From Gammaproteobacteria bacterium (GTDB taxonomy: Bacteria > Pseudomonadota > Gammaproteobacteria > DRLM01), in the NCBI GenBank assembly GCA_023266095.1, contig JAHFRV010000009.1, forward strand, positions 471-64,470: DNA of 64,000 bases, written 5' to 3'. Both the position numbers and the translations under genes were made by a program. The notes under the pieces are model-generated. The model did not search any database, was not told the origin of the DNA, and saw only the letters and a program-made list of their open reading frames with translations. This document shows, piece by piece, positions 28,747-64,000 of the stretch; the first letter of the stretch is position 1; each line of letters opens with the position of its first letter.

Positions 28747-28823
28747 ATGGCGGAGTGGACGGGACTTGAACCCGCGACCCCCGGCGTGACAGGCCGGTAT
28801 TCTAACCAGCTGAACTACCACTC
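28747..28823 (-). tRNA. tRNA-Asp (GTC)
   Basis: rc: GGAGTGGTAGTTCAGCTGGTTAGAATACCGGCCTGTCACGCCGGGGGTCGCGGGTTCAAGTCCCGTCCACTCCGCCA. Cloverleaf with anticodon loop CTGTCAC. Confidence 0.9.
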
Positions 28824-28840
28824 CTAAATCGTAAAACTTT

Positions 28841-28916
28841 TTGGTGGGTGCTGAGGGGATCGAACCCCCGACATTCGCCGTGTAAAGGCGACGCTCTACC
28901 AGCTGAGCTAAGCACC
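28841..28916 (-). tRNA. tRNA-Val (TAC)
   Basis: rc: GGGTGCTTAGCTCAGCTGGTAGAGCGTCGCCTTTACACGGCGAATGTCGGGGGTTCGATCCCCTCAGCACCCACCA. Anticodon loop TTTACAC. Confidence 0.9.
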
Positions 28917-28947
28917 CCAGCTGCCACCCACCCCTAAGGGCGGGCCG

Positions 28948-35838: not shown

Positions 35839-35923
<85 letters not shown>

Positions 35924-37222: not shown

Positions 37223-37298
37223 TGGTGGGCCATGTAGGACTTGAACCTACAACCAACGGATTAAGAGTCCGCTGCTCTACCAATTGAGCTAATGGCCC
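37223..37298 (-). tRNA. tRNA-Lys (CTT)
   Basis: rc: GGGCCATTAGCTCAATTGGTAGAGCAGCGGACTCTTAATCCGTTGGTTGTAGGTTCAAGTCCTACATGGCCCACCA. Confidence 0.88.
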
Positions 37299-37315
37299 GC
37301 AACACAACTTGAAAG

Positions 37316-37392
37316 TGGGGTGGACGACGGGACTCGAACCCGCGACAACCGGAATCACAATCCGGGGCTCTACCAACTGAGCTACGCCCACC
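37316..37392 (-). tRNA. tRNA-His (GTG)
   Basis: rc: GGTGGGCGTAGCTCAGTTGGTAGAGCCCCGGATTGTGATTCCGGTTGTCGCGGGTTCGAGTCCCGTCGTCCACCCCA. Has the G-1 extra 5' nucleotide and ends CCACCCCA, typical of tRNA-His. Confidence 0.9.
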
Positions 37393-37438
37393 ATTAAACC
37401 CGTTCGCGAACAGCGCGCGCGCATCATATCACGAAGAT

Positions 37439-37515
37439 TGGCGCGCCCGGCAGGACTCGAACCTGCTACCCTCGGCTTAGAAGGCCGATGCTCTGTCCGG
37501 ATGAGCTACGGGCGC
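37439..37515 (-). tRNA. tRNA-Arg (TCT)
   Basis: rc: GCGCCCGTAGCTCATCCGGACAGAGCATCGGCCTTCTAAGCCGAGGGTAGCAGGTTCGAGTCCTGCCGGGCGCGCCA. Confidence 0.88.
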
Positions 37516-37679
37516 AGACATTGTGAACAGCCGCTTGCCCTTCCCTGCTGCTGCTTCACCGCTTGAACTCGAACTCCAATCACAATTTTGGCTGATCGGC
37601 GCCGCGTTCACACGTCAAATCCTTACACGACACCAGCGGCCTAGCATTGCGTGGTGGCCTTACGGGTACACCCATTAAG

Positions 37680-37756
37680 TGGTCGGGGTAGAGGGATTCG
37701 AACCCACGACTTCCTGCTCCCAAAGCAGGCGCGCTACCAGACTGCGCTATACCCCG
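37680..37756 (-). tRNA. tRNA-Pro (TGG)
   Basis: rc: CGGGGTATAGCGCAGTCTGGTAGCGCGCCTGCTTTGGGAGCAGGAAGTCGTGGGTTCGAATCCCTCTACCCCGACCA. Confidence 0.88.
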
Positions 37757-44925: not shown

Positions 44926-45804
44926 GGTGCCTCCACGGATCGTTCGTCATTATAAAAACGTTTTGATCACCTTTACTTATCGCATTTTCTAATCTTAAAA
45001 GCTAACTGGAGGAAGAACAGTACCGAGCAAGCCTCGCGGATGCGTAAAGCGGGATGCGTAAAAAAGATGATGCCATGCGAAAAATCATTATTGGCAGACA
45101 GGGACTGATCCCGATGTTCCGCCGCAGTGAAGCCGGATTTATGGCCTTTAACCGTGATTCCATGGCAAAAAGAGCGGGGATAGCCGCAACAGCCGCACAA
45201 GCCGAAGCCAATGGGATAAACGCCACGGACGCTGACATTAACTGCATCATTTTTCCCCCAACTCTTATAATTATCATTCATTGCGCTTGAGGCTGAGACG
45301 CGCATATAACCTGCATTAAACTGATTTGGAGTGCGCCTGTCAAGCTGTAGTGCTATCCCGGTAGCCCAACCCCGCTCCATCCGATTGATTACTTAAGCAC
45401 ACTCTGATCAGTTGCGCAGTTATGCGATACTGGCTGCGATCATTGTGACTGCACAAGCTATCTGGCGAAGAACTTTCAGCAACACTTAGTGAAATACACC
45501 ACACCGATCCACGCCAGGTCAATACGCCTTTGGCGGCACGGGGTTAAGGCCCTCGCGGGACACGAGTGTGACTCACCGTGATCATCGCGGAACTTGCACT
45601 GGCGATATCCTGCTGGTCCAGCGGCGATCTTGCAGTTGGCGCAAGTCTGCAAGGGTGGAAAGGCCGCGAGGCTGATGACATGAAGTGGGTAAATAGGCAG
45701 TAATCTAGACTGTAATTGATCAACTTCGCAATATCCTCCCGGATTTCAGGCCTATTTGCATCCAGGCGACATAGGGCGCGCGTAGATCAGAGGTTCCTTA
45801 ATAC

Positions 45805-48800
45805 ATGGCTTTACACGATTTTCACCCCGCCGTCGCCGCCTGGTTCACCCGGCACTTCGCGCAGCCCACCGAGGCTCAGGCCCAGGCTTGGCCCGCGATA
45901 CGCCGTCACCAACACACCTTGATTGCGGCGCCGACCGGATCTGGCAAGACACTGGCGGCCTTTCTCGCCGCGATCGACGAACTGGTGCGCGAAGGCCTTG
46001 TCACGTCCTTGCCCGATGAAACGCGTGTGTTGTACATTTCGCCGCTCAAAGCCCTCTCCAACGACATTCAGAAAAATCTCGCGCAGCCGCTGGCTGGCAT
46101 CCGCGACGAGCTGTTGATGCACCACGGCGCGGATGTCGACATCCGCGCCGTGGTGCGCACCGGCGATACACCGGCGGGCGATCGGGTGCGTATGCGCCGC
46201 CTAGCGCCGCACATCCTGGTAACCACGCCGGAGTCGCTATTCATTCTGCTGAGCTCGGACTCGGGCCGGCACATGCTGAAAACCGCGCGCAGTGTGATCG
46301 TCGATGAAATCCACGCGCTGGCCGGCAACAAACGCGGCGCGCATCTGAGCCTGTCGTTGGAACGCCTCGCCGCACTGTGTCAGGAACATCGAGGCCACCG
46401 GCCGACCCGCATCGGCCTGTCGGCGACACAAAAACCGATCAAAGACATGGCGCGGTTTCTGGTCGGTGCGGCCGGCGGCGAATGCACCATCATCGACACC
46501 GGCCACGTGCGTGCCCGCGATCTCGCCATCGAAGTGCCCGGCTCGCCGCTGCAAGCGGTGATGGGGACCGAAGTATGGGATGAAATCTACGACCGCCTCG
46601 AACAACTGGTCGCCGAACACCGCACGACCTTGATCTTCGTCAATACCCGCCGCCTCGCCGAACGCGTCGCGCGTCATCTCGCCGAACGCATCGGTGAGCA
46701 ATCGGTCACGGCCCACCACGGCAGCCTGTCTCGCGAACACCGCCTCGACGCCGAACAGCGTCTCAAGGGCGGCCGCCTGCGCGCGCTGGTCGCCACCGCC
46801 TCACTGGAATTGGGCATCGACATCGGCGAGGTCGATCTGGTCTGTCAACTCGGTTCGCCGCGGGCGATCTCGATCTTCCTGCAACGCGTCGGCCGCGCCG
46901 GTCACGCCGTGCATGCCACACCCAAAGGCCGTTTGTTTCCGCTGTCGCACGACGAACTGGTCGAGTGCACGGCGCTGCTCGACGCGGTGCGACGCGGCGA
47001 ACTCGATCGCATCCACATTCCCGACCATCCGCTCGATGTACTCGCGCAGCAGATCGTCGCCGAGGTGGCCAGTCGGGAATGGGACGAGCAAGCGCTGTTT
47101 GAGATTTTCCGCCGCGCCTGGCCTTACCGCGAACTCGCGCGCGATGATTACATCGCGGTGGTGCGCATGCTCGCCGACGGCTACACCACGCGCCGCGGTC
47201 GGCGCGGTGCTTATCTGCACCGCGACGCGGTCAACGGCCGCTTGCGCGCGCGGCGCGGCGCACGCCTGACCGTAATCACCAACGGCGGCGCCATTCCCGA
47301 TTTGTTCGATTACGACGTGATTCTGCAACCCGAGGGCTTATTCATCGGCAGCCTCAATGAAGACTTCGCTTTCGAGAGTCTGCCCGGCGACATCTTTCAA
47401 CTCGGCAACAATTCTTACCGCGTACTCAAAGTCGAGCAAGGTAAAGTTTACGCCGCCGACGCCCACGGTCAGCCGCCGACCATGCCGTTCTGGCTCGGCG
47501 AAGCGCCGGGTCGCAGCGACGAATTATCGCTGGCGGTGTCACGGCTGCGCGAACTCATCGCCGCCCGTTTGCAGGAAGGTACGGAGGCGGCGCTCGTCTG
47601 GTTGCGCGATATCCTGCACCTGCCACCCGCCGCCGCGCAGCAAATCGTCGATTATCTCGCCGCCGCGCAGGCGGCGCTCGGTGTGCTGCCTACGCAACAC
47701 ACCGTGGTGTTCGAGCGTTTCTTCGACGAGACCGGCGACATGCACTTCGTCATCCACGCGCCGTTTGGTTCGCGCATCAACCGCGCCTGGGGTCTCGCGC
47801 TGCGCAAACGTTTCTGCCGCAAGTTCAACTTTGAATTGCAGGCCGCGGCGATGGAAGACAGTATCGTATTATCGCTCGGGCCGACGCACAGCTTTCCGCT
47901 CGCGGAGGTGGCCAGTTATCTGAAATCGTCGAACGTGCGCGAGGTGTTGATCCAGGCTCTGCTCGACGCGCCGCTGTTCGAGACCCGCTGGCGCTGGAAC
48001 AGCAATATATCGCTGGCGGTGCCGCGCAATCGCAACGGCAAACGCATCCCCGCGCAGTGGCAACGTTCGGGCGCGCAGGATCTGGTCGCGGTGATTTTCC
48101 CTGATCAGCTCGCCTGTCTCGAAAATATCGCGGGTGATCGCGAGGTGCCCGACCACCCTCTCGTCAAACAAACCATTCACGATTGTTTGTACGAGGCGAT
48201 GGACATCGAAGGCCTCGAACACCTGTTGCGGCAGATCGAAGCGGGTGAAATCCATATCGCGCCACGCGACCTCGCCGCGCCGTCGCCGTTATCGCAGGCC
48301 ATCCTCAGCGCGCGACCCTACGCTTTTCTCGACGACGCGCCCGCCGAAGAACGGCGCACCCTCGCCGTGCAGCAACGCCGCTATCTCGACCCGCAGAGCG
48401 CGGCGGAACTGGGCCGTTTGAATCCCGAAGCCATCGCCCAAGTGCGCAGCGAGGCCTGGCCCGAGGCGCGCGACGCCGATGAATTACACGACGCGCTCAA
48501 CTTGTTCGGCTTTATCACCGAGACCGAAGGCCGGCGCGACAACCCCTATTGGCCGTCGTTATTGCAGCAACTCATCGAGCGGCGCCGCGCCACACTACTC
48601 CGCACACCGCACGGTGAAAATATCTGGGTGGCGACGGAACGGCTCGCCGAGCTGCTCCGCTTATTTCCCGCTGCGCCGCTCACGCCGCCGATTGCCCCGG
48701 TGATCGAACCCGCCGATAAAACCTGGACCGAAGCAGCTGCCTTGCGTGAAATCATGCGCAGCCGTCTCGAAGGCTTGGGGCCGGCAACAGCGACCCAGCT

Positions 48801-50136
48801 CGCCGCGCCACTGGGACTAGCGCTTGCGCAGATTCATTTCGCCGTCGCCGCGCTCGAACAGGAAGGCTACGTATTGCAAGGCAGTTTCACCGGCACCACT
48901 CAAGAAATCGAATGGTGCGAACGCGGACTGCTGGCGCGCATCCATCGCTACACCGTGCAGCAATTGCGCCGCGAGGTCGAGCCGGTGAGCCCCGCCGACT
49001 TCCTGCGTTTTCTGCTGCGCTGGCAACACCTCGGCGAGGCGCGCGGCGAAGGCAACGAGGCGCTGGCGGCGGTGCTGCTGCAATTGGAGGGTTACCCCAT
49101 CCCCGCCGCCGCCTGGGAAGCGGAAATCCTGCCCGCGCGCATCGAGATGTATCTCACCTATATGCTCGACGCTTTGTGCGGCGCGGGACGTTTTACCTGG
49201 CTGCGTTTGCAGCCGCCCAAAGACAAAGGCGTCGACACCCGCAAGGCCGCACCGGTGCGCATGACGCCCATCGCCTTATTGCCGCGTCAACACATCAGCT
49301 ATTGGCGTGACGTGGAAACCGATGCGGAACCGGCCGCGCTCTCGGCCACCGCGCAAAAAGTCGCCGACAGCTTGCAACAACACGGCGCTTCGTTTTTTAT
49401 CGATCTGGTACAGCACACCGGCTTGTTGCGCACCCAAGTGGAAGAGGCCCTCGGCGAACTGGCGGCCCGCGGCCGGGTCAGCGCCGACAGCTTCGCCGGG
49501 CTGCGTGCTTTAATCACTCCCGCGCAACGGCGCGCCGGCTTCGGCCGTCATGGCCGCCGCCGCGGCGCGGTCAGCGTCGATGAAGCCGGCCGCTGGGAAT
49601 TAGTGCGCCGCCCCGCGTCCGCGCCGGACAGCTCGCCGCGGCAACAAGCAGACCAACGCGTGGCGCACATCGCCCGCAGCTTGCTGCGCCGCTACGGCGT
49701 GGTGTTCCGCAAACTGCTGGAACGCGAGAGCAAACTGCCGAGCTGGCGCGAGTTGTTATACGTCTACCGCCGCATGGAGGCACGCGGTGAACTGCGCGGC
49801 GGCCGCTTCGTGCAAGGTTTTTCCGGCGAACAATTCGCCTTGCCCGAGGCGGTGGGCAGCCTGCGCGAGATCCGCAAACAGGCCGCGCGCGGCGAACTCA
49901 TCGCCATCAGCGCCGCCGACCCGCTCAACCTGGTGGGCATCCTCACCCCGGGCCGGCGCGTCCCCGCCCTCGCCGGCAATCGCATCCTGTTCCGCGACGG
50001 CGTACCGGTGGCGGCGCTCATCGCGGGTGAATTCGAGGCGTTGCAAGCATCGAGCGGCGAAGAGCTCGGACAGATGCGCGCACGTTTACTCGGCAAATCT
50101 TCCAACACAAAATCGGCGGCAAGAATCGCGCTGTGA
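45805..50136 (+). CDS. lhr: Lhr-like ATP-dependent DEAD/DEAH-box helicase (large helicase-related protein)
   Basis: 1443 aa. N-terminal helicase core ([24 protein letters not shown] box [25 protein letters not shown], motif [10 protein letters not shown]) followed by the long Lhr-specific C-terminal extension. Confidence 0.88.
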
Positions 50137-50589: not shown

Positions 50590-50667
<78 letters not shown>

Positions 50668-58237: not shown

Positions 58238-58314
58238 TGGTAGGCGCGAGAAGACTCGAACTTCCGACCCCCACCATGTCAAGGTGGTGCTCTAACCAAC
58301 TGAGCTACGCGCCT
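58238..58314 (-). tRNA. tRNA-Val (GAC)
   Basis: rc: AGGCGCGTAGCTCAGTTGGTTAGAGCACCACCTTGACATGGTGGGGGTCGGAAGTTCGAGTCTTCTCGCGCCTACCA. Confidence 0.88.
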
Positions 58315-59601: not shown

Positions 59602-60267
59602 CTACTGACTGAAAAAATCCTTGGGAAATCCAGGATGGATTTGCAGGCCGTCCATGTCAACGGTCTCAACCAGCCTGCCGCTCCTACCGAAGCTCAGCAC
59701 CTTTAGAGGAAAGCCAGTCGTTCGATCCAGCCATAACTGGTAACGGGAAACGGCGTCGATCGAGACATCGTCACCGACACTGACTCGCACATGCAGCGCT
59801 TGCTGCCCGCCTACCACCTCCACGCCCATCAGCTCGGTTTTGCCTCGCGTCCGCAGCTTTTGCACATTCTGAAATAAAGCTCCCACATCCGAGCGGTCCA
59901 CCCGCTGGCCGGTGGGGCTTTGAATCAACTTGTTTTCGGGGCTCAGGTTCAAGGCTGGAAAACTGCGGTGACCAAATGGCCAAAGCGTCACTCGCCGGGT
60001 CAGCGGATCGTATACCAGCACGGCGCCTTTATACGACGTCTCAAATTCCATGCGTACATAACCGGGCTTTTTGAAATAATAACGAATGATCTCGCTTTTA
60101 CCCGTGCTCAGCGATGTCAATCTCACGCCATAACTCTCGACTGTCTGATAAAAATCGATGGCGGCCCTAAGCGGATCGGCGGTATCGGCGGTATCGGCGG
60201 TATCGGCGGTATCGGCGGTATCGGCGGTATCGGCGGTATCGGCGGTATCGGCGCCAAGATGAATCAT
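59602..60267 (-). CDS. LolA-like/lipoprotein-carrier-fold protein with N-terminal (Ala-Asp-Thr)x9 repeat
   Basis: MIHLG(ADT)9ADPL... then ~180 aa beta-rich domain (YYFKKPGYVRMEFE...VLVYDPLTRRVTLWPFG...). No signal peptide is seen. The repeat is encoded by (GATACCGCC)n. In-frame stops lie immediately upstream of the ATG. Confidence 0.5.
   Translation of the reverse strand: MIHLGADTADTADTADTADTADTADTADTADPLRAAIDFYQTVESYGVRLTSLSTGKSEIIRYYFKKPGYVRMEFETSYKGAVLVYDPLTRRVTLWPFGHRSFPALNLSPENKLIQSPTGQRVDRSDVGALFQNVQKLRTRGKTELMGVEVVGGQQALHVRVSVGDDVSIDAVSRYQLWLDRTTGFPLKVLSFGRSGRLVETVDMDGLQIHPGFPKDFFSQ
60160..60252. repeat. Perfect 9-bp tandem repeat (ggcggtatc)x9 plus partial units, in-frame within a coding region
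   Basis: Nine exact head-to-tail copies at 60168-60248 with partial copies at each end. The unit length is a multiple of 3, so it encodes (ADT)n on the minus strand. Confidence 0.9.
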
Positions 60268-60389: not shown

Positions 60390-60821
60390 TTATTTCGAAA
60401 GCCCAAACCAGGATTTGAATAGTTTGATGCGTTCGATCTTCTTTATGTCAGGTAATACGGTATAAAACGGCGAAAAACGGATAGAGACGGTTTTTCCATC
60501 ACCCCACGGCCACCAAGAGCAATAGATCAAATCATGGTGACTGGGATCGGAAGTGAAAAGCACCTGCCCCGCCCTCAGACCGCCGAAATGTTTATGGATA
60601 AATTGCACAATCTCAGGCGCGCCGCTGATATTGGCGACATCCCACCTACTGGCAAGATGGCGTTGAATCACCGCACGCACCTTGTCCTGCTCAGTCGTTC
60701 TAAACTCGCTCAACAGACATGCGAAACGATCGTCCCATTTCCATATCCCACCTTTCAGCGTGCCTACCAATTCTCTGCAAAAATTCTCTTCCGAATCAAG
60801 AAGCGGCCCCATCATCGTCAC
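60390..60821 (-). CDS. Hypothetical protein (no recognised domain)
   Basis: 143-aa ORF in a locally lower-GC stretch (60.3-61.05 kb) with W-rich motifs (CSWWPWGDGK). No similarity recognised. Confidence 0.4.
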   Translation of the reverse strand: MTMMGPLLDSEENFCRELVGTLKGGIWKWDDRFACLLSEFRTTEQDKVRAVIQRHLASRWDVANISGAPEIVQFIHKHFGGLRAGQVLFTSDPSHHDLIYCSWWPWGDGKTVSIRFSPFYTVLPDIKKIERIKLFKSWFGLSK

Positions 60822-60907
60822 CTAATTATTCCGGGTTAAACCCGGTGTAATTCCACAGCAAAGGAAGCTCTGAATAATTCCATCCTGGAATTCTCAAAGC
60901 AAGCAAA

Positions 60908-61030
60908 GCGAAAAATGCGATTTTCGCTTTGCTTCATTTTCAATGGCCGGCCGCCATTGAAAATGGCGACAAGACCCTGTGCTTCGCTCTTCCCTGTGCC
61001 GCAGGAACCGCTGAATAAATCAGAGGCTCC
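60908..61030. repeat. Structured intergenic repeat, copy 1 (two palindromic hairpins plus conserved ~40-nt core)
   Basis: Hairpins gcgaaaa-atgcgat-tttcgc (60908-27) and cattttcaatggc-cggccg-ccattgaaaatg (13-bp stem, 60935-65). The core is ccctgtgccgcaggaaccgctgaataaatcagaggctcc (60992-61030). It lies immediately 3' of the minus-strand DUF2132 gene. Confidence 0.6.
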
Positions 61031-61053
61031 CAATATCAATCGGGCCTGATTCT

Positions 61054-61362
61054 TTAATCAATCCGGTCAGTCGGCGGCGGCGAACGGGTATTTATATATA
61101 AACGTTCGACCTTCTCTCGCGCCCAGGGTGTGCTTCTCAAAAACTTCAGGCTGGATTTGATGCTCGGTTGGTGTGTGAAACACTTGATGGGAATGAGGCT
61201 TGCCAATTTTTCCCAACCATATTGTTCCGCCAGCCGGGTAACCGCCGTTTCCAGCGTAACCCCGTGCAGCGGATCCTTGGACGGCGGTTCATTCATATCG
61301 TGGCCTGATTCACTCATGGTTCGGATAGACGCGACGCTTAGCGATTGCCGCTCGTCACTCAT
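61054..61362 (-). CDS. DUF2132 (VF530-family) small DNA-binding-like protein
   Basis: ...HGVTLETAVTRLAEQYGWEKLASLIPIKCFTHQPSIKSSLKFLRSTPWAREKVERLY resembles the VF530/DUF2132 signature. Overlaps the upstream RRM gene by 8 nt, so likely an operon. Confidence 0.5.
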   Translation of the reverse strand: MSDERQSLSVASIRTMSESGHDMNEPPSKDPLHGVTLETAVTRLAEQYGWEKLASLIPIKCFTHQPSIKSSLKFLRSTPWAREKVERLYINTRSPPPTDRID

Positions 61363-61612
61363 CCTGGTCCTTGCCCGGCTCCGCTTTCTTCACGCGGATT
61401 TTATTGCCGCCCACATCCCGGCCATTGAGTTGTTTGATCGCCGCTTTGGCTTCACCGGCCCGGGGCATTTCGGCGAAACCGAATCCTTTGGATTTTCCTG
61501 TCTCGCGATCCACCACCAACTTGCAATACTGCACCGCGCCATAGGCCTGCAACATCTCCAGCACTTCACTCTCGGTGGTTTCCCGAGCCAGATTGCGCAC
61601 CAATATTTTCAT
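61355..61612 (-). CDS. RNA-binding protein with RRM domain
   Basis: MKILVRNLARETTESEVLEMLQAYGAVQYCKLVVDRETGKSKGFGFAEMPRAGEAKAAIKQLNGRDVGGNKIRV contains RNP-2 (ILVRNL) and RNP-1 (KGFGFAEM) motifs. Confidence 0.85.
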   Translation of the reverse strand: MKILVRNLARETTESEVLEMLQAYGAVQYCKLVVDRETGKSKGFGFAEMPRAGEAKAAIKQLNGRDVGGNKIRVKKAEPGKDQDE

Positions 61613-61803
61613 ACTTACACCTATTGTTCCGACTGCACCTGGACCGCCGCGACTTGCAGCGGAAATTTAAGATCCACTAGCCAGCCATCGGCGAAGGAAC
61701 AGTTACGCTTACTTTTCCAAACCAGACACGCCGCCGCCCCAACCGTACCGCGCTAAGGCCAGCTTCCGCAACAAGGCAGTCATTGTGACAAGAAGCCGGC
61801 TAT

Positions 61804-61822
61804 TAAGGAACCTCTGATTTAG
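61804..61822. repeat. Partial third copy of the intergenic repeat core
   Basis: ggaacctctga(tttag) matches 11 contiguous nt of the core ggaacctctgaataaatcag. It lies 3' of the minus-strand Mo-enzyme gene (stop 61895). Confidence 0.35.
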
Positions 61823-61894
61823 CGGCAGCGCCCGCGCGCCAGCGGTATAGAGCCTGCCCAAACGAGGAAAGTAAGCAAGCTTAACTATAGGCCA

Positions 61895-62656
61895 TCAAAG
61901 TCCGGCAAACCAATTATAGCCTTTGTCTTCCCAGTAGCCGCCCGGATACCTATTGGTGACGTAAATCGCCATGATGTGCTTGGGATTCTTGAAACCCAGC
62001 TTGGTCGGTATACGCAGTTTCATCGGAAAACCATACGAACGCGGCAGTATCTGGTCATCATAGCGCAGCGTCATTTGGGTCTGGGGATGCAACGCGGTGG
62101 CCATGTCGATACTGGTGTAGTAATCGTCCGCGCATTTAAAGCCGACATATTTTGCGCTCAAATCGGCGCCGACCCGTTCGAGAAAGGTCCGGAATGTGAC
62201 GCCGCTCCATTTGCCGATGGCACTCCAGCCTTCGACGCAAACGTGACGGGTGACTTGCGTGGTCTGCGGCAAAGCATTCAGCTCCCGCAGCGACCACGGC
62301 CGGCGGTCGCGAATCAAACCGCTGAGTTCGAGGCGGTAGGGTTCGGCCTCAACTACCGGCGCCTCGTCTTCATCGTAAAAAGCATTAAACGGAAACGGCC
62401 GGGTAATCGCGCTATCCGGATAGGTGGGCGCCAGTCGGTTCGGATCGAACAAAGCCGCCTGAACCCGATCGTTCCAGCGCGACATGCTCCACAGCGTCTT
62501 GCGCACCGTTTCTTGATTGGTGATATTGCAACCGGTAAGCAGACCGAGCGCGCCCACGCTCAGCGCTCCCTTCAGCAGTAGACGGCGTTCGAGAAATTGG
62601 CGCTCAGCCTTGCTGCACTCCACGGGGGCGGATTCGATGCCAGGCCGGCGTTTCAT
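61895..62656 (-). CDS. Sulfite-oxidase-family molybdopterin-binding oxidoreductase, Tat-secreted (YedY/MsrP-like small Mo enzyme)
   Basis: Twin-arginine signal ERRLLLKGALSVGALGLLTG. Moco-binding region HVCVEGWSAIGKWSGV typical of the sulfite oxidase fold. ~250 aa. The start is internal to ORF 61895..62725. Confidence 0.7.
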   Translation of the reverse strand: MKRRPGIESAPVECSKAERQFLERRLLLKGALSVGALGLLTGCNITNQETVRKTLWSMSRWNDRVQAALFDPNRLAPTYPDSAITRPFPFNAFYDEDEAPVVEAEPYRLELSGLIRDRRPWSLRELNALPQTTQVTRHVCVEGWSAIGKWSGVTFRTFLERVGADLSAKYVGFKCADDYYTSIDMATALHPQTQMTLRYDDQILPRSYGFPMKLRIPTKLGFKNPKHIMAIYVTNRYPGGYWEDKGYNWFAGL

Positions 62657-62658
62657 GA

Positions 62659-63366
62659 TCAGCTCCTCTTGCCGGGTTGCCGGACGCGGCCGGTCCACAT
62701 CGGAATAAATGTCCGCGGCACCCACATCACCATCACCACATGAATCACCACGAACGACACGATGCCCGTCATGGTAAAGAAATGCACCAGCCGCGCCCCT
62801 TCATAACCGCCCAGCAAGACACCCAGACTCTGTAATTGAACCGGCTTCCACATCACCAAACCCGACAGCACCACGAGGATGATCATCACGATGACGCTGA
62901 GATACGCCGTGCGTTGTACTGGATTATAGGTGCCGACCGCGTGACTCAACCGGCCAGAGGTAGTATTGGCGATTTCCCGCAACAGAGACTTCACGGTGAT
63001 GGGCAACAAATGCTGGCGGTAATGACCCGAAAAAATGCCATGCGCCAAATAAACCAGGCCATTGACGGCCAGCAGCCACATCGCGGCGAAATGCCACTGC
63101 AAGGCCCCCGCCAACCAGCCGCCCAAGGTCAGGTCATTCGGAAACGTGAAATTGAACAGCGGTGAGGCATTGTAGATCCGCCAGCCGCTGGCCACCATGA
63201 TCAGTATCGCCGCGACATTGACCCAATGGGTGATCCGTACCGTCAACGGATGCACGTTTATCAGTGTTGTATTTTCAGAAGACGGGGGTACAGGTAACGA
63301 ACCTGACATCATCGGTTCCTTCTGGCCTAAGCACGCCGCATTGCGTGTTGTTATGAGGAATGTCAA
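62659..63366 (-). CDS. Membrane b-type cytochrome subunit (cytochrome b561-like), partner of the Mo enzyme
   Basis: Polytopic (4-5 TM) with conserved His in TM helices (VRITHWVNVAAILIM, WHFAAMWLL, HFFTMTGIVSFVVIHVVM). Its stop lies 3 nt upstream of the Mo-enzyme start. The exact start (63366 or internal MMSGS) is uncertain. Confidence 0.6.
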   Translation of the reverse strand: MTFLITTRNAACLGQKEPMMSGSLPVPPSSENTTLINVHPLTVRITHWVNVAAILIMVASGWRIYNASPLFNFTFPNDLTLGGWLAGALQWHFAAMWLLAVNGLVYLAHGIFSGHYRQHLLPITVKSLLREIANTTSGRLSHAVGTYNPVQRTAYLSVIVMIILVVLSGLVMWKPVQLQSLGVLLGGYEGARLVHFFTMTGIVSFVVIHVVMVMWVPRTFIPMWTGRVRQPGKRS

Positions 63367-63533
63367 ACGGCGGGAATTTCGCGCCCTAACCGAACACCCT
63401 ACTATTTATTTCCCGCTAAAATCATGTCGCCATGCGGCCAAAATTTGCTCGCATCACCAACATCGATTAGTCGGTGGCCATGAGTTTACCTTACACCCAC
63501 TTGAACTTTGTTGAGTGCGTGGGCAAGAAAACT

Positions 63534-63593
63534 GATGCGATTCGCTTCACTCGCCCCTGTGCCGCAGGAACCTCTGAATAAATCAGGGGCTCC
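63534..63593. repeat. Structured intergenic repeat, copy 2
   Basis: gatgcgattcgcttcactcg-cccctgtgccgcaggaacctctgaataaatcaggggctcc has 39/41 identity with the copy-1 core. It abuts the dbpA stop codon (63593-95). Confidence 0.6.
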
Positions 63594-64000
63594 TAAAGTT
63601 TTCTCGCCCTGAAATAGCGGCCTTTCATCTTGCCGGCCGAGAGTTGCTGCAGGGCGCGCTCCACCATGGAACGTTCGATCGCCACATAGGCGTGATTATC
63701 GAAGATGTCGATTTTACCGACCTGGCTGCCGGCGATACCCGACTCGCCGGTCAAGGCGCCGAGGATGTCACCGGGACGCAGCTTGGTCTTGCGACCGCCG
63801 TCGATGCACAAGGTGACCATGGGCGGTTTGAGTGGGCGTTGATTGCCCTGCTCCGGCAAGTCGACACTGGAGGACTGCTTGACGGGACTCTTTTGATAAT
63901 CCTCGATGGCAATGACCTTGTGCGACTCGCCAGCGGTGTAGAGGCTTAAAGCAAGCCCCGCTTTGCCCGCGCGTCCGGTGCGGCCGATACGATGGATATG
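63593..64000 (-). CDS. dbpA: ATP-dependent DEAD-box RNA helicase DbpA, C-terminal part; the gene continues past the window end
   Basis: Continuous minus-strand frame from the window edge: HIHRIGRTGRAGKAGLALSLY... (helicase motif VI), then the DbpA-type C-terminal RNA-binding domain (MVTLCIDGGRKTKLRPGDILGALTGESGIAGSQVGKIDIFDNHAYVAIERS). Confidence 0.8.
   Translation of the reverse strand, partial: HIHRIGRTGRAGKAGLALSLYTAGESHKVIAIEDYQKSPVKQSSSVDLPEQGNQRPLKPPMVTLCIDGGRKTKLRPGDILGALTGESGIAGSQVGKIDIFDNHAYVAIERSMVERALQQLSAGKMKGRYFRARKL

Follow-up and report, generated by a model that had tools for sequence, protein, structure and literature searches.

Introduction

Structured bacterial MITEs (transposable elements of the miniature inverted-repeat class) have been reviewed for Correia/NEMIS in Neisseria, ERIC/IRU in enterobacteria and BOX/RUP/SPRITE in S. 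pneumoniae (PMC10969869, PMC2229807), and the target-site duplications of the insertion sequence (IS) IS5 are described as 4 bp long with the motif 5'-YTAR-3' (PMC5009759). The present analysis concerns a hairpin-rich repeat in 64,000 nt of DNA from Gammaproteobacteria bacterium (assembly GCA_023266095.1, contig JAHFRV010000009.1, positions 471 to 64,470), this whole stretch being called the window below. A reading made from the letters of the stretch (the sequence-only reading) had described the repeat as an extragenic element, either REP-like (repetitive extragenic palindromic) and associated with terminators or a conserved motif of the 3' untranslated region (UTR), placed after three minus-strand genes. 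The repeat was found to be part of a larger element, which is very probably an IS5-type non-autonomous MITE inserting at YTAR. The MITE family is previously undescribed, as far as Rfam and literature searches go, and has recently been active in this lineage.

The family shares with Correia/NEMIS, ERIC/IRU and BOX/RUP/SPRITE a non-coding length of 100-200 bp, inverted ends, clustering and nesting, as well as an intergenic position and predicted stable RNA hairpins; those elements are transcribed together with their neighbours. It shows no sequence relationship to them and uses another target, the Correia target being TA, and it forms five separate hairpins, with GGA motifs in loops, whereas they form one long fold-back. 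With IS5 and the IS5-group MITEs it shares the 4-bp YTAR duplications, ends starting with GGAAG... and survivors that favour non-coding DNA. It differs from IS5 in having no transposase gene, in being only 151 bp long and in having no cognate full-length IS identified; each MITE end also pairs as a hairpin with a second, internal copy of its terminal repeat, and the left end is more diverged.

Architecture of the element

The repeated core CCCTGTGCCGCAGGAACC(G/T)CTGAATAAATCAG(A/G)GGCTCC was recovered at two sites on the plus strand (60992-61030 and 63555-63593) with 37 of 39 positions identical, and is real as first described, since its two mismatches in 39 nt compare with 0 matches in 100 shuffles. 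The ungapped similarity around the core extended over 53 nt at 89% (60981-61033 against 63544-63596), because both window copies carry the derived insertion CACAGGGRMGAGYGAAGC, which is not in the family consensus. The two copies probably belong to the same local subfamily, or sequence may have been exchanged between them. The core contains hairpin D and half of hairpin C only, and the unit size of about 45-60 nt given by the sequence-only reading was too small. Alignment of the surroundings of hairpin matches in metagenome-assembled genomes (MAGs) led to the recognition of the true unit, a 151-nt non-coding family element that consists almost wholly of five consecutive hairpins in the order D, C, B, A, E on the minus strand of the window.

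The full copy (copy 1) was found on the minus strand at 60863-61030, with a length of 168 nt against 151 nt in the family and a 17-nt insertion in hairpin C. It was covered by nhmmer over positions 1-151 (E=4e-41) and by the covariance model R1 over model positions 1-152 (141 bits, E ~5e-41), and its five hairpins folded at -79.8 kcal/mol (z=-8.1). The 4-nt flanks ATTG (61031-61034, minus) and TTTG (60859-60862, minus) form the left and right target-site duplications, respectively. Hairpin D (61004-61030, minus) joins the left terminal inverted repeat GGAGCCTCTGA through a 5-nt loop to its internal inverted copy TCAGCGGTTCC; in the family it reads GGAGCCUCUGA, 5-nt loop, UCAGAGGUUCC, and its helices 1-2 are almost invariant. 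Hairpin C (60966-61002, minus), which in the family reads GCGGCACA-NGGA-UGUGCCGC with GGA in the loop, was disrupted in copy 1 by the 17-nt insertion AGAGCGAAGCACAGGGT. Hairpin B (60935-60965, minus) contained the 13-bp stem CATTTTCAATGGC / GCCATTGAAAATG (60935-60947 / 60953-60965), followed by hairpin A (60901-60934, minus) with a 14-bp A/U-rich stem and the loop UCGCAU. Hairpin E (60863-60900, minus) contained the loop AGGAU and ended in the right terminal inverted repeat ...GGAATTATTCAGAGCTTCC, the family form being CUCUGAGAAUUCC-AGGAU-GGAAUUAUUCAGAG and then CUUCC. Hairpins B and A are the two strong palindromes that had been noticed beside copy 1; both exist, but they are internal to the element and not its neighbours. 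A 67-aa open reading frame (ORF) overlapping copy 1 gave no Pfam match.

The truncated copy (copy 2) lies on the minus strand at 63522-63593, the start being approximate and the model-supported part being 63544-63593. Hairpin D (63567-63593) is preserved in it, together with half of hairpin C (the 5' half) and a piece similar to the loop of hairpin A, but the right end and hairpins B and E have been lost. It was scored by R1 at 29.4 bits (E ~1e-6, model positions 1-48) and by nhmmer over positions 1-43 (E=6e-10). A third insertion is represented by a remnant at 61803-61821, where TTAA (61803-61806) is followed by the exact 11-nt element end GGAACCTCTGA (61807-61817); the partial copy noted earlier at 61806-61816 is therefore genuine, an exact end of the element after TTAA. 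A fourth, solo-end remnant was found at 45787-45801, with GGAACCTCTGA on the minus strand (45797-45787) and TTAA at 45801-45798, in an intergenic position just upstream of the ATG of a 1443-aa ORF (45805-50136, plus strand). By our own arithmetic, about 0.002 occurrences of an exact degenerate 11-mer beside YTAR are expected per window. The inventory of the window thus comprises one full copy, one truncated copy and two solo-end remnants, and no further full copies were found in its 64 kb by blastn-short, nhmmer or the covariance model.

Copies beyond the window

A first scan with the hairpin pattern, over one genome per species, matched uncultured gammaproteobacterial MAGs (loci L003, L006 and L008, L012 and L014, L013, and the Immundisolibacter MAG locus L010), and a scan of metagenomes with the hairpin D loop left free gave 54 loci. 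In about 0.43 Mb of DNA fetched from the gammaproteobacterial MAGs and metagenomes, nhmmer and R1 identified 36 distinct full copies plus fragments, so that the expectation of a repetitive, extragenic, hairpin-forming element with many copies in related genomes was borne out. The genes beside the copies, in several MAGs and in many contigs from metagenomes, are unrelated, and the copies lie in either orientation. Some 8-kb loci contained two or three copies (e.g. L003 258-409, 944-1094 and 5029-5263), and extra copies that had not been seeded by the pattern were found by nhmmer and the covariance model in the same loci as seeded ones. A low copy number of one or two per genome, as for an RsmY/Z-like gene pair, had been considered and is void, the first pattern having prescribed the sequence of a non-conserved loop.

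Solo 27-nt copies of hairpin D, with YTAR flanks, were present in L016, L024, L033 and L044, and the one in L033 (520-600) stands between two TTAA sequences (TTAA/D/TTAA) right after the end of another copy. Nested or abutting copies were also seen, with a full copy in L014 immediately followed by a second end (2379-2395) and four or five MITE fragments within 1 kb in L042 (1600-2560). Longer variants of 193-279 nt (L051 746-938, L003 5029-5263 and L034 81-359) contained insertions inside hairpin loops, the E loop of the L051 variant carrying about 40 extra nt with further GGA motifs.

Terminal repeats, target-site duplications and empty sites

The element was found to contain terminal inverted repeats of about 18 bp (GGARSCTCTGAWTWATTC), the left consensus GGAgCCTCTGATTAATTC and the right consensus GGAAGCTCTGAATAATTC matching at 15 of 18 positions. 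The flanks of the 36 full copies read Y-T-A-R on both sides, with C14/T18, T23, A28 and A24/G12 at the successive upstream positions and the same downstream. The 4-bp direct repeats were perfect in 14 of the 36 copies (e.g. CTAG/CTAG, TTAG/TTAG, CTAA/CTAA, TTAA/TTAA, CTTG/CTTG), followed by a further 17 copies with a match at three of four positions. When the partners were shuffled with the YTAR composition kept, 10,000 shuffles gave 3.1 perfect pairs on average and never more than 11.

The sister contigs L069, L070 and L071 were reached through homologues of the MsrP-like protein, which is 95% identical to that of the window, and they contain the same gene order as the window: dbpA, cyt b, msrP, a 106-aa gene, RRM, VF530 and a 141-aa gene. 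No element copies were found anywhere in these contigs, and their syntenic sequence has none of the three insertions present at 60.8-63.6 kb in the window. At site 1 the sister contigs read gattgatTTTGagtgtgg (...gcccgattgatTTTGagtgtggaatt...), whereas the window reads ...gcccgattgatATTG[168-nt element]TTTGctgtggaatt..., that is, TTTG at the empty site against ATTG[168 nt]TTTG. Site 1 accordingly reads as a clean insertion that duplicated 4 bp, the left copy having, as the comparison suggests, later acquired one substitution.

At site 2, the dbpA stop, the sister genomes contain gaTTTAGaaaaag and no element, whereas the window contains cTTTAG/GAGCC... followed by the truncated element. As had been proposed, copy 2 abuts the dbpA stop codon, and the G of its TAG (63595-63593) is the first base of the element; at this junction (63593-63597, minus) the flank reads TTTA or TTAG. 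The spacer between dbpA and cyt b is about 226 nt in the window (63290-63592) against about 492 nt in the sisters (L069 4856-5347), only patches of it align, and the part downstream of copy 2 is rearranged or deleted. At site 3 the sisters carry tttaTTAAtgcacc and, upstream, the 106-aa gene (L069 6788-7108, between the MsrP-like and RRM genes), whereas the window contains only AAATCAGAGGTTCC/TTAA (61821-61803, minus). A deletion of about 560 nt (61600-61900 in the window against L069 6762-7570) has removed most of the 106-aa gene, of which about 60 nt of the start are recognisable in the window, and it ends at the MITE end remnant. What had been noted as a partial copy is thus a single end that survives from a third insertion, at the endpoint of a deletion.

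Possible relationship to IS5 and the proposed mode of movement

The right end of the MITE, GGAAGCTCTGAATAAT (reverse complement), matched the right end of E. coli IS5, GGAAGGTGCGAATAAG, at 12 of 16 positions, for which the chance with a random 16-mer is about 3e-5; the comparison sequence was IS5A of E. coli K-12. This likeness of the right end may reflect mobilisation by an IS5-group enzyme.

Several observations weigh against the assignment to an IS5-type MITE. The left end matched the IS5 ends at only 8-9 of 16 positions, several of the flanking repeats show mismatches, and some insertions lie at targets other than YTAR (TTTG, TGAA, TCAG, CTTG). No autonomous partner was found, in that a search of the fetched DNA for end pairs 0.4-4 kb apart with matching flanks gave no pair enclosing a transposase gene. 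Likewise, E. coli IS5 InsH gave no match by tblastn against 576 kb of fetched DNA, and the element gave no match by distant blastn against 72,556 plasmids. The outside copies were first fished with the hairpin D pattern, so that the near-invariance of hairpin D is partly built in, although neighbouring copies that were not seeded by this pattern also keep hairpin D. Finally, the strong covariation and loop conservation described below exceed the needs of a purely selfish MITE. Three candidates for an autonomous IS contained ordinary-looking ORFs of the wrong size and were set aside without Pfam comparison. A string search of the literature for the element ends gave primers only.

Under the IS5-type reading, a DDE transposase encoded elsewhere and belonging to the IS5 group would recognise the terminal inverted repeats of about 18 bp. 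Insertion at YTAR with a 4-bp staggered cut would duplicate four bases, as observed at these sites. The solo 27-nt hairpins would arise by deletion between a terminal repeat and its internal inverted copy, and the truncated copies and lone ends seen at copy 2, 61807 and 45787 would be the products of adjacent deletions.

Position relative to genes

The duplicated tetranucleotide was found to be the stop codon of the neighbouring gene in L008, L052, L058, L023 and L061 and likewise at the dbpA junction of the window; in L019, where the copy stands between convergent genes, this is so on both sides. Copies are present at gene ends because YTAR contains TAA or TAG and the duplication preserves the stop codon. 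Insertion at a stop codon would be without cost, since the YTAR copy on the gene side stays intact, and together with the purging of insertions inside genes this would let survivors pile up at gene 3' ends in either orientation. In the window copy 2 abuts a stop codon, and copy 1 starts 23 nt past the TAA of the VF530-family gene.

The D side abuts the end of a co-oriented gene in 15 of the 36 copies and the E side abuts the end of a convergent gene in 15, while a gene end is absent within 60 nt in 15 of the 36. A cruder neighbour analysis, which mis-called the window and is therefore indicative only, counted 20 read-ins in sense and 15 in antisense, and 10 convergent arrangements as opposed to 2 divergent ones. 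The family shows no clear polarity relative to genes, and the three minus-strand genes of the window therefore give a small-sample impression that overlies target preference and survivorship.

These positions bear on the alternative that the repeat is a conserved 3'-UTR or terminator-associated RNA motif, selected at gene ends for termination or mRNA stability. All window copies follow minus-strand genes, the element is highly structured, and gene 3' ends face it about 35 times against 23 for 5' ends in a crude ORF analysis, as such a motif would lead one to expect. Hairpin A is also terminator-like when read antisense, being on the plus strand the only terminator-like site in the element; two unrelated matches fall within coding regions near 62.7 and 63.06 kb. 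Against this, the terminal repeats, target-site duplications and empty site indicate arrival by transposition, and the copies lie in both orientations and also away from gene ends, which speaks against the 3'-UTR motif of the sequence-only reading. The terminator association does not hold either: on the sense strand neither hairpin D, the core hairpin, nor hairpin E is followed by a T-run, and the gene strand gave no intrinsic terminator at either hairpin. Rfam, which the sequence-only reading had named as a check, gave no family match at the element (window at the gathering score; seven MAG loci at E<=10). Selection of the repeat as a motif of gene ends is accordingly regarded as very improbable.

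RNA structure and CsrA-like loops

The element was found to fold into five hairpins on both strands, with z=-12.7 for sense and z=-10.5 for antisense. The covariance model R1, which had likewise been suggested as a check, was built, and conserved secondary structure was seen in the 36 copies. In the model-guided alignment 93% of cells were paired, against 36-50% with slid partners, and compensatory (double) changes occurred in 36 of 56 pairs, values which were reached by no shuffle. The alignment was fitted to the structure and so favours it, but the slid controls and a plain MAFFT alignment agree in direction. Compensatory changes were present in 12 of the 13 pairs of hairpin B (helix 4) and in all 12 pairs of hairpin A (helix 5), and covariation was seen only in hairpins C, B and A and in the inner E stem. 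The two transposon ends, formed by hairpin D and by the outer stem of hairpin E, were nearly invariant, as expected of protein-binding ends.

The loops were conserved while the stems turn over, with NGGA in loop C (27 of 36), (A/U)GGAU-like sequence in loop E (about 28 of 36) and UCRCAU in loop A. The consensus and hairpin-loop context of CsrA sites have been described (PMC4347634). The RsmE/CsrA consensus A/UCANGGANGU/A was found exactly in 23 of the 36 copies on the sense strand and in 0 of 36 on the antisense strand, against a shuffle mean of 0.23. The CsrA consensus obtained by systematic evolution of ligands by exponential enrichment (SELEX), RUACARGGAUGU, was matched exactly by hairpin C in L012 and L014 and with at most one mismatch in 11 of 36 sense strands and 0 of 36 antisense strands, the mean in shuffles being below 0.3. 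Outside hairpin D the sense strand contained 60 G.U pairs against 32 A.C pairs, which is weak evidence because the copies are related. The two copies of the window have lost the canonical hairpin C. An attempt to derive the RNA strand from a conserved G.U in hairpin D is void, since the search pattern forced the mismatch and metagenome copies carry the arms swapped.

The interior of the MITE may conceivably be kept as an RNA module with two predicted high-affinity CsrA/RsmA hairpins (C and E), a dispersed, mobile Csr sponge or a regulon-wiring device, a proposal made from sequence comparison to which a low probability is given. It is favoured by the presence of the motif on one strand only, by fixed loops over compensating stems and by the G.U excess. 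In this proposal the stems of the three further interior hairpins would drift by compensatory change while their loops stay fixed, and an element transcribed in the sense direction may, as its motif suggests, bind CsrA. It is weakened by the lack of a clear orientation bias, by data that leave the use of CsrA by the host unsupported and by other sources of covariation. Covariation can also come from quasi-palindrome-templated correction at the DNA level, and this process and subfamily structure can mimic the signal. No csrA gene was found in the window or the fetched loci, a sample too small to inform, and a literature search joining MITE and CsrA returned only an Rfam database paper.

The same loops raise the alternative of stand-alone sponge small RNA (sRNA) genes of the Csr/Rsm type. 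The sponge sRNAs CsrB, RsmY and RsmZ and the CsrA sites of mRNAs are alike to the element in presenting GGA in a hairpin loop (C ACA-NGGA-UGU; E AGGAU), and the SELEX fit of hairpin C, the strand-specific exact consensus and the GGA of loops C and E would all suit such genes. The MITE differs in being mobile and multi-copy, with dozens of copies carrying transposon ends and duplications, in having only two conserved GGA hairpins, in lacking its own promoter and terminator, and in lacking an Rfam match, including one to the Csr/Rsm clan (CL00106), at the element (window at the gathering score; seven MAG loci at E<=10). Nothing is conserved upstream of its first base, and hence no shared promoter or activator box; a scan of 60700-63700 gave no sigma-70-like site, and the sense strand contains no terminator. 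The element is therefore not a stand-alone sRNA gene in the manner of RsmY, RsmZ or CsrB, an identity with only a very slight probability. Between two MITE copies, L003 820-1008 gave a weak Rfam RsmV match (18 bits, E=0.54, gathering score 100), which overlaps the start of the second copy (L003:944-1094) and is probably due to chance.

Other identities considered

REPs are palindromes of 20-40 nt with a GTAG head. The REP-like nature proposed by the sequence-only reading would imply an element of the REP/BIME type (BIME, bacterial interspersed mosaic element) mobilised by a RAYT (IS200/IS605-like Y1) transposase, and the repeat is indeed short, extragenic, palindromic and repeated; REP, BIME and REPIN elements are likewise extragenic palindromes after genes and can stabilise upstream mRNA. 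Such elements have neither terminal inverted repeats nor target-site duplications, and the RAYT Y1 enzyme moves them, whereas the present unit of 151 bp has 18-bp terminal inverted repeats, 4-bp YTAR duplications, a clean empty site and a right end resembling that of IS5, as for a cut-and-paste MITE, and does not fit these REP traits. No RAYT gene was seen in the fetched loci, without any scan aimed at RAYT. A REP identity is considered extremely unlikely.

A purely local duplication in the 2.7-kb region with no wider family, which the sequence-only reading had named as its refuting case (no further copies and no conserved structure), has next to no probability, since the derived CACAGGGRMGAGYGAAGC makes the window copies each other's closest relatives but 36 distinct full copies exist elsewhere and the sister genomes contain three independent empty or undisturbed sites. 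An integron attC site was dropped on visual inspection, as no GTTRRRY / RYYYAAC core sites were seen, the adjoining genes have housekeeping roles, and the data are accounted for by transposon ends and duplications.

Neighbouring genes and other features of the window

The genes around the copies lie on the minus strand. A DbpA-type helicase gene, cut by the window end, ends with the stop TAG at 63595-63593, followed by a cytochrome b561-like / molybdopterin-oxidoreductase pair (YedZ/YedY- or MsrQ/MsrP-like) at 63366-61895, an RRM protein at 61612-61355, a VF530-family protein at 61362-61054 (stop TAA 61056-61054) and a 143-aa protein with no family assigned at 60821-60390. Further downstream a MucB/RseB-like ORF (59602-60267, minus) was found to contain a 9-nt tandem repeat, ATCGGCGGT, with about 9-10 units at 60157-60264 near its 5' end. 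The orthologue in L069 has 198 aa against 221 aa in the window, which suggests an in-frame repeat expansion. Nine minus-strand tRNA genes were present in the window (28751-28917, 35842-35923, 37226-37756, 50594-50667 and 58241-58314), including a cluster of four at 37226-37756, and no tRNA gene adjoins a MITE copy.

Implications

For annotation, blocks of 150 nt and wrecks of 27 nt or 11 nt are to be masked as a MITE family and not recorded as terminators, sRNAs or 3'-UTR motifs. A stretch of 2.7 kb has taken up three insertions and lost a gene by a deletion of about 560 bp since the split from a relative with a 95% identical MsrP-like protein. The family provides a natural example of a YTAR-targeting transposon that lands on stop codons harmlessly, and it advises caution against reading a position at stop codons as function. 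By its features the element appears to be selfish DNA of an ordinary kind, and only its hairpins that resemble CsrA sites set it apart. If the proposal of a CsrA module were true, a sense insertion in a transcribed 3' or 5' UTR would put the mRNA under CsrA control, and a pool of transcribed MITE copies could titrate CsrA. Should the CsrA-consensus hairpins on one strand be functional, the family would be a transposon that spreads sites for a post-transcriptional regulator.

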